From: a virus
Taxonomy: Duplodnaviria; Heunggongvirae; Uroviricota; Caudoviricetes
Length of the DNA stretch: 43,121 nt
Virus record (IMG/VR): IMGVR_UViG_2529292921_000020
Direction: 5' to 3' (one strand)
Shown: in pieces, positions 4,138 through 8,367 of the stretch
Layout of the letters: every line of letters begins with the position of its first letter
Numbering within the stretch: position 1 is the first letter of the stretch
Position numbers and translations under genes: made by a program
The notes under the pieces: model-generated
The model's input: only the letters and a program-made list of their open reading frames with translations
The model's database searches: none
Told to the model about the DNA's origin: nothing

Positions 4138-6193
<2,056 letters not shown>

Positions 6194-6840
6194 TTATTTA
6201 ATAGCTCCCGTTCGTGTTTTCTCTTGTTAATGGCATCTTCAGTAAATACAGGGTTACTGATAGTGACACCAATTTCAAAACAACCTTCAGACGTATTAAC
6301 GTTTGGTAATAACGTTTCCATTATCGCGTCCTCAACAATGAATTTTGTGATGTGGTGCCTGGTGCCTCCAGGTGACGTTAACCAGTTAACAATTAACGCC
6401 GGATACAGAGAATCCACCCATAACACTGTTTTTGGTTTTAACTGTTCCGCGTGCGCTCAGCCGCATTCACCGCATCACAAAATTCACTTTAAAAACGGCG
6501 GCAGAGCAGTCACGGAGTAAAACTGATACCGCCAAACGTCACCAGAAAATTGATAACAGAGGGCGTTGCAGCGGGGTTGTCGCTTAAGCGTATGGTCAAC
6601 CTGACAACCCGGTGTCCTCAACGGGGAAGGAATAACCCCGCCATACTTACCGCCGCGCCATTTCGCGGAGTGCCACAACCGGAAGCGCACGGTCGAACTA
6701 AATTTAACGACACCGTACAGAGAGACCAATTTCGCCGTGCGCTTTCGCGTTATGCCCTGACTTTTCAGGGACATATCCTTTCAGTAAACTGTCAGTGCCG
6801 GATGTTCACCCGTGTCCGGCGCACGCACTCCACCTGACCC

Positions 6841-7158
6841 GTGGAGAACTCCTTAATTACCAACCCTCAGGAGGGTGAAATGGATAAAAAGCAAATTGAG
6901 GCCCTGCAATCTATTATTGAAAAACAAGATGAAGCTATCAGGATTCTTTCATATCGCACTGATATGATACTAAATATGCTTTCTGCATTAACGGCTGCGC
7001 TTGGTGGTACAAAAACAAACGTATACCGCGAAGTTGTTATTCAACAGATAGATAAATTTGAAAAAACCATACCAGGTATTAATGCTCATCTTGCAGAACA
7101 AGAGAAAGACCATGCTCTTATGGCAATTTCTTCAGTAGCTCTCCCGAAAGTTGAGTAG
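6841..7158 (+). CDS. Hypothetical protein in AT-rich island
   Basis: 105-aa ORF, predicted helical/coiled-coil, strongly AT-rich codon usage unlike the surrounding phage genes; true start may be the internal Met (MDKKQIEAL). Confidence 0.4.
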   Translation: MENSLITNPQEGEMDKKQIEALQSIIEKQDEAIRILSYRTDMILNMLSALTAALGGTKTNVYREVVIQQIDKFEKTIPGINAHLAEQEKDHALMAISSVALPKVE

Positions 7159-7531
7159 TTTTAATTGTTGTTTTGAAATAATCACTGCTTTCACATTTGA
7201 GTGATTTCATGGCAATCCAAATGCGGGCCTCTGTGCCTGCATTTGGTTCCAGTTGCTGTAGACGTTTTGCGTCTTCCAAAAGTAAGGCGATAATGTGTTT
7301 CAGCTTCTCATCATTTGCTTGATTCTTGTTTTCAGGCGAATTCTGTCCGCCGAATAGGCGCTTCTCTTCATACAGACCTATAAAGGCACGACGCACGTTA
7401 CCGGATATAGTATCGATGGTTTCTTTTTCTACGGTACTCAGGTCAAGAGTCGCCAGTTGAGAGCGAACCACATTCGATGCCATTTCCTGGAATGGTACTG
7501 GTAAATCTTTAAATTCCATCGTCAACCTCAT
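7118..7531 (-). CDS. Hypothetical protein in AT-rich island, convergent with 6841-7158
   Basis: 137-aa ORF (probable start MEFKDLPV); no recognisable motif; occupies the kil/sieB position of Rac-like prophages. Confidence 0.4.
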   Translation of the reverse strand: MRLTMEFKDLPVPFQEMASNVVRSQLATLDLSTVEKETIDTISGNVRRAFIGLYEEKRLFGGQNSPENKNQANDEKLKHIIALLLEDAKRLQQLEPNAGTEARIWIAMKSLKCESSDYFKTTIKTTQLSGELLKKLP

Positions 7532-7764
7532 CAGTCAGTGTTTCTGGTTAACCAGCGACGCGCGCCAGCTTCAGTTTTAAACGTTTTGCTTCTGGTATAC
7601 GTCATCGCGGTAAACGTGCCGTCCTGGTTGGGGAACACGCCACATACCAGAGATTCGTTGTTGCCAAGATTGAGCATATCCATGTTGACCTCATTTCCCC
7701 TTAACGCCGGGGTAGCGGAACAAAAACCTGCTGCATAGTTATTAAAGTTGAACCCTGCCGTCAT
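7531..7764 (-). CDS. DUF1391-family small protein (YdaF-like)
   Basis: C-terminal 50 aa (MDMLNLGNNESLVCGVFPNQDGTFTAMTYTRSKTFKTEAGARRWLTRN) match my recollection of Rac YdaF; real start is probably the internal Met near 7683. Confidence 0.6.
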   Translation of the reverse strand: MTAGFNFNNYAAGFCSATPALRGNEVNMDMLNLGNNESLVCGVFPNQDGTFTAMTYTRSKTFKTEAGARRWLTRNTD

Positions 7765-7869: not shown

Positions 7870-7906
7870 TACCCATAGGTATTTAAAAAGTAAATACCCA
7901 TGGGTA
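7870..7906. promoter_or_regulatory. OL-like operator pair: TACCCATAGGTA (7870-7881) and perfect palindrome TACCCATGGGTA (7895-7906)
   Basis: Two 12-bp dyad-symmetric sites 25 bp apart, between the 3' end of the leftward repressor gene and the leftward early genes. Confidence 0.5.
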
Positions 7907-7948: not shown

Positions 7949-8367
7949 CTATGATGCGTTTTGTGCTTTCTTTTTACGGATTTCTTCGTAGATCATATTG
8001 TAATACTGTTTTTTCTCTTCAAGAGTTTTTAATAATTTATCCGCTTCACTTTCTGGCAGTTCGTCTAAGAGATCTAAAAAAATACGTTGTCGTGGCGTTA
8101 GAACCCTTGTTTCATAACTGGAGGCTGTGTTCGTTGATGATGAAACGATACCATCCATCCATCCCCGGGGTAACCCAAAGGACTCTTCGATAATCTCCAC
8201 CATATCATCAGCGATCCGTTTTTTCCCTTTTTCCCCTCTGGGTACAACATTCTTGATACATAAGAAGGCTCGCGCCCGATCTTTCTGGCCACGTTAACCG
8301 CTTTACCATCGCATTTCTCATCACGAATTTTGATGAGTTGCTGTCGTCTAAATTCATATTTGTCCAT
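7949..8367 (-). pseudogene. Leftward prophage repressor (RacR/DicA position, HTH N-terminus), split into two overlapping frames by an apparent frameshift in T6/T5 runs at about 8217-8230
   Basis: ORFs 8098-8367 (HTH-like ...AVNVARKIGREPSYVSRML...) and 7949-8203 overlap in different frames; both frames are open across the homopolymer tract, so a 1-nt indel would give one ~140-aa protein. Confidence 0.55.

Follow-up and report, generated by a model that had tools for sequence, protein, structure and literature searches.

A convergent gene pair in a dicBF-type prophage operon as a probable allele of an exchangeable cargo module with a structured leader

What are two convergent, AT-rich genes without a recognisable motif doing in the early-left region of a lambdoid prophage? 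The question is raised by the virus record IMGVR_UViG_2529292921_000020 (Caudoviricetes), the whole analysed stretch of which, 43,121 nt, is hereafter called the window, and in which an open reading frame (ORF) on the + strand, gene A, runs towards one on the - strand, gene B. An earlier note, made from the sequence only, had seen them as a pair of possible kil- or sieB-type host-interaction or exclusion genes in a Rac-type setting. In Qin/Rac-like lambdoid prophages the early-left (dicBF) operon, which is under repressor control, appears rather to contain a hypervariable module of which the pair is one allele, A being an exchangeable, moron-like cargo with a throttled leader, expressed in the lysogen against the direction of the operon and with an exclusion-type role, and B a mosaic gene of the operon. 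This reading is, taken whole, judged moderately probable, and its anatomical part, exchangeable cargo plus mosaic operon gene, highly probable.

The two ORFs were present as described, at 6841..7158 (+, 105 amino acids (aa) from a GTG) and 7118..7531 (-, 137 aa), convergent and with a 3′ overlap of 41 bp, and the AT-rich island was also confirmed, the GC content being 0.38-0.42 over 6850-7450 compared with 0.53-0.56 over 6400-6850. The starts assigned to them in the earlier note did not hold. Gene A (6880..7158, +; phrog_18692) most likely starts at ATG 6880, with AGGAGG 6 nt upstream, and encodes 92 aa, in agreement with all homologues and with RefSeq WP_000358771.1; GTG 6841 was rejected as a start, since it lies inside a conserved leader hairpin (hairpin 2, below) and has no Shine-Dalgarno (SD) sequence. 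Gene B most likely starts at ATG 7519, preceded by GAGG, and encodes 133 aa, in agreement with RefSeq WP_001339605.1 and all homologues. Both starts are the RefSeq calls in E. coli E2348/69, in which the region is 99.7 % identical.

Directly upstream of A lies a structured 5′ leader of approximately 85 nt (6795..6879, +), which is conserved in all contexts in which A was found. A search for the signature of its first hairpin gave over 120 viral contigs, a number well above that of contigs with A, and 125 usable loci. In these the same leader, SD sequence and ATG position precede at least nine unrelated families of small ORFs (57-105 aa), or nothing. A cargo together with a gene carrying the N-terminal domain of B was found at 46 loci, an empty site of the K-12 Qin type at another 46, the N-domain gene only at 25, in which the leader is truncated inside hairpin 2, and a cargo only at 8. 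The variable sequence starts about 14 nt ahead of the ATG. As the same promoter-like site and leader precede at least nine unrelated families, and the site is empty in K-12 Qin, A is regarded as exchangeable cargo, and the survey defines a variable segment flanked at one end by the leader and SD sequence and at the other by conserved coding sequence. Swapping of cargo would occur by recombination between the conserved leader and the conserved coding sequence, either the N-domain or the core of B. Among the cargo families is a remote paralogue of A occupying the same slot (hhalign 96 %, E 2e-9).

Two further observations were made in the survey. One cargo family (L057, 544-916, and L090; 94 aa, MAKFTVRIELRD...) gave a borderline Pfam match to GhoS, a type V antitoxin endoribonuclease, at 21.2 bits with a cutoff of 21. 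In L110, L101 and L096 the commonest N-domain variant (124 aa, with a 'DLHEKYF' C-terminus) abuts a leader cut within hairpin 2 and no cargo is present; this type looks like a deletion derivative of the cargo-bearing module.

Gene A is real. It is under purifying selection, with dN/dS of 0.08-0.34 in comparisons with Salmonella and P2-like homologues, in which synonymous change is saturated, and the remaining five frames of the locus all carry stops. Its full-length relatives, at 33-44 % identity, are of equal length and share conserved motifs; an in-frame indel was also seen in the family. The family is small, with 22 clusters (90 % identity) among 5.8 billion proteins and 14 matches among 1.84 billion representatives, and A is carried by 127 of 5426 complete E. 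coli genomes.

Five contexts of A were distinguished. Besides the dicBF operon with B, it occurs in Rac-like Salmonella prophages with a partner of 71 aa, in a P2-like early region with an unrelated 214-aa helix-turn-helix (HTH) partner (L011), directly beyond LexA-type cI genes in lambdoid immunity regions, where no partner overlaps it (L012, L015), and beside an integrase in an island with a restriction-modification system and TacA (L013/L014). In all contexts seen, A belonged to a mobile element, was close to the lysogeny module and converged on its right-hand neighbour. The idea of a dedicated two-gene pair is thus not borne out, A being found without B, and the core of B with other cargos or alone.

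The predicted A protein is acidic, soluble and helical (grand average of hydropathy (GRAVY) -0.10; maximal KD19 (19-residue hydropathy) 0.93) and has no transmembrane (TM) segment; its AlphaFold2 (AF2) model consists of three helices with a predicted local distance difference test (pLDDT) score of 74.5. The remote homology searches and structure prediction proposed in the earlier note found no relative of known function for A by sequence or fold, and gave a poor model for B. The absence of a recognisable motif was upheld for both proteins: for A there was no Pfam match at E<=1 and for B nothing significant in Pfam, neither gave anything significant in NCBIfam or PADLOC, and the PHROGs matched were only families of 'unknown function'. 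PADLOC, searched also for known anti-phage defence families, gave nothing significant for A, and its match of B to a HerA fragment (E 0.022) was spurious. PDB sequence profiles gave no match to A or B, and a literature search for the protein accessions and PHROG identifiers of A and B found nothing.

Gene B, next after ydfA in the operon (7118-7519, -), is a composite of an N-domain (aa 1-~52, MEFKDLP...NVRRAFIGLY), a disordered linker, a 'B core' (aa ~72-103, LKHIIALLLEDAKRLQQLEPNAGTEARIWIA) and a tail (aa ~104-133). Its PHROG matches divide into N-terminal and C-terminal halves. The N-domain is common to many proteins with different C-termini, and the core, of about 40 aa, is widespread in Enterobacterales prophages, often as stand-alone proteins of 47-50 aa with variable tails. 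The Salmonella partner of A consists of B core and tail. The core is constrained (pN 0.09-0.14 versus pS 0.41-0.90), and in the tail, compared between E. coli and Salmonella, pN and pS are nearly the same (~0.4), which rules it out as a functional domain. An identical 41-bp overlap with A recurs for three different partner proteins. Taken together with the neutral evolution of the tail, the overlap is best explained by an ORF that continues into the cassette of A, on the strand antisense to it, as far as a conserved stop, B being a mosaic early-operon gene, the last ~30 residues of which are unselected. The AF2 model of B, helical hairpins and a disordered linker, was of low confidence (pLDDT 59.6) and too poor for a structure search.

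The leader comprises three helices on the + strand: hairpin 1 (6796-6805/6812-6821), hairpin 2 (6828-6833/6841-6846), of which there are three sequence types with the pairing kept in all, and a helix formed by CUCCU (6849-6853) with the AGGAG of the SD sequence (6869-6873), hereafter the anti-SD:SD helix, with the ATG at 6880. The + strand folds with -34.1 kcal/mol and z = -2.97 (1 of 200 shuffles), compared with z = -0.61 for the - strand. Over 23 distinct leaders the three-helix model had 85.8 % of its cells paired, compared with 33-46 % with slid partners, and a covariation score of 0.143, compared with 0.092 or less. Two pairs of the anti-SD:SD helix are changed on both sides (UA12/AU11; AU12/UA8), and the U.G and G.U pairs of hairpin 1 form on the + strand only. 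A covariance model of the leader matched upstream of distant A homologues (18.8 bits in L012, 18.5 bits in L013) and also at the empty sites of K-12 and Tritos. It had no match in the regions upstream of sieB in Rac and lambda, which excludes one common sieB leader. Outside the window the leader lies at 5915-6006 in L004, 166-256 in L011, 457-545 in L012 and 4928-5006 in L013. Rfam 15 gave no match at 6795-6879 with E<=1, and elsewhere DicF as well as sub-threshold STnc100 and mir-2041. The leader is presented as a candidate new cis-regulatory RNA motif.

A promoter-like site precedes the leader (6762..6790, +), with a -35 hexamer TTTTCA at 6762-6767, a 17-nt spacer and a -10 hexamer TAAACT at 6785-6790. 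The predicted start of a cargo transcript, ~6796-6797, coincides with the first bases of hairpin 1. This arrangement recurs in most dicBF-type loci, and loci with an unrelated sequence upstream have different -10-like hexamers (TAAAAT; TATTAT and TAAGCT with TGn) 6-8 nt ahead of hairpin 1. An inverted repeat, CCCTGA-N4-TCAGGG (6755-6770), overlaps the -35 and is kept in the majority of loci of the dicBF type; read on the - strand it is CCCUGAAAAGUCAGGG, which is boxB-like.

Downstream, 59 nt past the A stop, a 12-bp stem-loop (7217..7246, +) lies antisense within the B codons PNAGTEARIW. Among ten distinct variants, 115 of the 120 stem positions are paired when read in the cargo sense (16 of them G.U) and 101 of 120 when read in the B sense, where A.C mismatches stand in place of G.U pairs. 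The element is a candidate for the 3′ stem-loop, or a weak terminator, at the end of cargo transcripts. Given its better pairing antisense to B, an RNA constraint may account for part of the strong conservation of the B core. Stand-alone A loci have consensus terminators 33 nt (L012, 845-865) and 20 nt (L011, 549-572) past the stop; none was found after A in L015.

The gene order at the locus is a repressor-like gene, ydfA, B, A on the opposite strand, DicF, dicB and a stub of ydfD cut by an element of the insertion sequence (IS) family IS21. The first gene of the operon, ydfA-like with a DUF1391 domain (7531-7764, -; PF07151, 97 bits), has its stop abutting the ribosome-binding site of B. Downstream of the module, in the same operon, are the small RNA (sRNA) DicF (6496-6547, -; RF00039, 72.5 bits, E 2e-15) and the distal gene dicB, encoding a cell-division inhibitor (6133-6426, -; PF05358, 125.6 bits; only the 3′ part of this ORF is the gene proper, of 62 aa). 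The flanks given in the earlier note, an IS100-like element and DUF1391, stood, as the IS21-family element and ydfA; dicB and DicF, however, lie between the element and the pair, so the operon is of the Qin dicBF type and not of the Rac type. B belongs to it as judged by its strand, its position between ydfA and dicF and its own ribosome-binding site right after the ydfA stop, and a generic scan reported no terminator-like site on the - strand from 7531 to 6547.

In K-12 Qin and in phage Tritos the order is ydfA-ydfB-ydfC-DicF-dicB without A and B, and strain XDL has ydfA-ydfB-ydfC plus both B and A, from which it follows that the pair is an accessory insertion within the operon. The spacer at 6550-6865 is 91 % identical over 316 nt to the K-12 ydfC-dicF spacer, and the leader lies on its opposite strand. 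This spacer has been described as a long untranslated region (UTR), and DicF as the product of RNase E and RNase III acting on a long precursor, the non-conserved genes of the operon being uncharacterised (PMC5069750).

Several features of the surroundings were also noted. The IS21-family element (4224-6025) encodes IstA (rve) and IstB, oriented towards the A leader ~700 bp away, and interrupts ydfD (DUF1482); homology to E2348/69 restarts at 6092 past it, and ydfD is reduced to its first ~15 codons beside dicB. The repressor-like gene, at the DicA/RacR position (7949-8367, -) and assigned by position, has a 1-bp deletion in an A7 homopolymer (8219-8224) relative to the 139-aa WP_000362153.1 of E2348/69, which leaves ORFs of 89 and 84 aa; either the sequence is in error here or the frameshift is genuine, and a genuine one could de-repress the dicBF-type operon. 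Between this gene and ydfA, a 16-bp near-perfect palindrome with a T-rich tail (7870-7906, -) could be a terminator of the repressor-position gene, an operator of the operon promoter, or both. A 96-aa ORF over DicF and the long UTR (6484-6774, -) matches phrog_8854 (1e-36) and is probably a recurrent spurious call on the non-coding dicF precursor region in phage annotations. The STnc100 match (6289-6498, -), over the DicF-dicB spacer and the dicB start, remained below threshold at 35.3 bits versus a gathering score of 47. In the Salmonella Rac-like prophage L004 a DicF-like sRNA (5734-5782, -; 36.2 bits, Rfam gathering score 48, E 1e-4) lies between ydaE and the leader, the arrangement of sRNA, spacer, leader and cargo thus being kept outside E. 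coli.

The A unit would, according to this anatomy, consist of a weak sigma-70-type promoter, the ~85-nt leader, the 92-aa ORF and the 3′ stem-loop, all on the strand opposite the operon. In the leader the stable 5′ hairpin comes first and the helix occluding the strong SD sequence last. In the repressed prophage the A unit alone would be transcribed, antisense to the silent operon, with the anti-SD helix throttling translation; on induction, operon transcription would collide and its RNA pair with the A transcript, so that A and dicF-dicB would be expressed reciprocally. Expression in the lysogen with translation controlled by the leader is given about an even chance. The A protein, small, soluble and without catalytic motifs, would most likely bind another protein, and might have a role of benefit to the lysogen such as superinfection exclusion. 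Slots near prophage immunity regions have repeatedly been a source of superinfection-exclusion and anti-phage functions; an exclusion-type function for A in particular is the likeliest guess, made from position only, as sieB has this role in the equivalent place, but it is tentative and on its own rather unlikely.

Expression data from K-12 bear on this indirectly. In total RNA of the uninduced wild type, ydfC was the only gene of the operon with an antisense excess, 7.2 antisense versus 3.1 sense reads per million (RPM), antisense values for ydfB, dicF and dicB being 0.34 or less (PMC7373196, Tables S1b-c). Double-stranded RNA captured with p19 was also higher at ydfC than at ydfB, dicF and dicB, with ydfA raised as well in four of six samples (PMC7373196). 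The antisense reads fit a weak promoter in the spacer firing towards ydfC, where the leader sits.

A number of points weigh against the proposed account. The K-12 antisense signal is low, was summed per gene and comes from an empty site, and does not bear directly on A, whose transcription and translation are inferred. The promoter-like hexamers agree with the consensus at 8 of 12 positions, a weak match that the generic scan scored below its threshold, and the stem-loop at 7217-7246 lacks a canonical U tract. Only three to four independent lineages contribute to the covariation in the leader, and the search pattern itself prescribed hairpin 1, because of which support for the leader is moderate. 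The leader lies within the long UTR of the operon near DicF, in Salmonella too, which is compatible with a function on the - strand. The type of cargo largely goes with the type of C-terminus on the partner; this coupling, treated here as linkage, could be functional pairing. Finally, none of the slot's cargo proteins is of known function, the borderline GhoS-like match being the sole hint.

The coupling could mean that A and B are a polymorphic cognate pair on opposite strands, with a conserved N-domain protein of variable C-terminus expressed from the lytic operon and a matching variable small protein from the other strand, whether effector and immunity protein, toxin and antitoxin, or exclusion protein and phage escape factor. 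Precedents are reportedly sieB with esc in lambda and P22, for exclusion with escape, and BstA, said to be a prophage-encoded defence with a matching self-immunity. At 46 of the 54 cargo-bearing loci the convergent partner of the cargo has the B N-domain and a variable C-terminus, cargo and C-terminus (CT) clusters correspond mostly one-to-one (cargo1-CT2, cargo2-CT4, cargo3-CT3, cargo4-CT5, A-CT1), and the pairing of A with the B core is maintained from E. coli to Salmonella. Each component, however, also occurs alone, and a cognate pair is for this reason ranked as a rival: A has no B-like partner in L012, L013/L014 and L015 and an unrelated HTH partner in L011, and the B core is found with three different cargos and most often stands alone. 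CT0 accompanies two cargos and in its commonest form has no cargo; the B-core type may accompany A, a different cargo or no cargo at all. The part of B overlapping A evolves neutrally, and the coupling may equal linkage within one recombination cassette. The genes are convergent and not co-transcribed, Pfam toxin-antitoxin domains are absent and the RelB-like match reached only 15.9 bits versus a cutoff of 50, by which a type II toxin-antitoxin pair is not supported; a cognate pair of any kind is considered quite unlikely. That A is an annotation artefact, a chance ORF antisense to the operon with only B or the RNA elements real, would suit a tiny family without annotated function, and is scarcely credible: it is contradicted by the selection analysis (low dN/dS with saturated synonymous change, and an in-frame indel), by diverged homologues of the same length with conserved motifs, and by the strong SD sequence, the five closed frames and the remote paralogue in the same slot.

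Another possibility is that the hairpins matter mainly on the - strand, in processing of the DicF precursor, stability or attenuation, and that the + strand ORFs landed beside them. The leader is inside the spacer conserved with K-12 and persists at empty sites without cargo, the Salmonella DicF-like sRNA is 135 nt from it, and DicF is cut from a long precursor by the two RNases (PMC5069750). On that strand, however, the fold is no better than in shuffled sequences, the G.U and U.G pairs of hairpin 1 and of type-b hairpin 2 become A.C mismatches, and the covarying helix, being anti-SD:SD, is sensible only for a + strand mRNA. In addition, all cargos start at an equal distance from the same SD sequence, and the leader precedes A in L012 and L013, in the former of which Rfam finds no DicF. 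A mainly - strand role is thus held to be unlikely, although roles on the two strands are not mutually exclusive. A could also be an early anti-defence or host-takeover gene for lytic growth or infection, not expressed in the lysogen. Small, fast-exchanging proteins clustered in phage early regions are typical of anti-defence loci, and translation restrained by a leader would suit conditional expression. A is nevertheless on the strand opposite the early operon, so the early-left promoter cannot drive it and transcription from there would work against it. It has its own promoter-like site and, in two stand-alone copies, terminators, adjoins repressor or integrase genes in other elements, and antisense RNA is seen at ydfC in uninduced K-12 (PMC7373196), all of which make a lytic role very unlikely.

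With the reading of A as exchangeable lysogenic cargo, the locus may be a member of something wider: an undescribed hypervariable slot at the sieB-equivalent position of Enterobacterales lambdoid prophages, with a shared promoter and an SD-sequestering leader, holding at least nine families (57-105 aa), A being one member and the cargo frequently paired with a convergent early-operon protein of polymorphic C-terminus, as a reservoir of lysogen exclusion/defence or effector/immunity functions wired reciprocally to dicF and dicB. This generalisation is possible and, at present, somewhat doubtful. If the reading of the pair holds, it points to an easily searchable locus, defined by the leader and a coding anchor, where prophages of E. 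coli, Salmonella and related hosts exchange small proteins, and the SD-occluding structured leader would be a new cis-regulatory RNA and a handle on the timing of cargo expression. The cassette, being antisense to the RNA that leads to dicF and dicB, could in addition have an effect on these two well-studied inhibitors of division. If the reading fails, the pair is another rare hypothetical moron beside a mosaic early gene.

Among known systems, sieB of lambda, P22 and Rac is like A in lying on the strand opposite the early-left operon, convergent with and abutting or overlapping an early gene, near the repressor and upstream of a kil-type function. The order in Rac is racR, ydaG and ydaF (DUF1391) converging on sieB, followed by KilS and kilR, and in lambda sieB is a + strand ORF abutting N. 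sieB is independently transcribed, as is proposed for A. The suggestion of kil- or sieB-type genes was therefore right as to a sieB-equivalent position and wrong as to homology: neither A nor B has similarity to SieB, KilR, YdaE/F/G, YdfB/C or DicB, and BLASTP of both against Rac SieB, as well as a search for a Pfam SieB match, found nothing. SieB proteins sit in the inner membrane by N-terminal TM helices and are about 160-190 aa long. A was rejected as a SieB protein, having no sequence match, 92 aa compared with 162-184 aa, no TM segments and soluble helices in the AF2 model. Neither A nor B was retained as an inhibitor of the Kil/KilR/DicB type, as they lack similarity and the kil role in the operon is already held by dicB and DicF.

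The likeness to the Qin dicBF operon (ydfA-ydfB-ydfC-dicF-dicB-ydfD) is closer, with ydfA, DicF, dicB and a ydfD remnant present and B matching by position and strand, the differences being that B replaces ydfB and ydfC here and that the A cassette is absent from K-12. Type I toxin mRNAs and other leaders that sequester an SD sequence behind a 5′ hairpin share with the A unit a stable 5′-terminal hairpin, an anti-SD helix and the possibility of a fully complementary transcript from the other strand; A, however, is not a small hydrophobic peptide and no dedicated antisense sRNA was identified. Polymorphic effector/immunity layouts resemble the N-domain with its variable C-terminus and variable small partner, whereas the components here occur alone. 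The anti-phage hot spots of P2 and P4 are reportedly variable loci of temperate phages flanked by conserved genes, and are similar in having many alternative cargos at a fixed place between conserved sequence; the cargos here are single tiny proteins (57-105 aa) in lambdoid early-left operons with a shared regulatory leader. The moron, a concept said to go back to Juhala et al. in 2000, is described as an independent unit of promoter, ORF and terminator between conserved prophage genes. A is like it in its presence or absence between otherwise collinear prophages and in its atypical AT-rich composition; in promoter and terminator the likeness is partial, with a promoter-like site and with consensus terminators after two of the three copies that stand alone. 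A difference is that a typical moron has its own distinct signals, whereas here many cargos share one structured leader and a fixed insertion point, antisense to and overlapping a gene of the operon.

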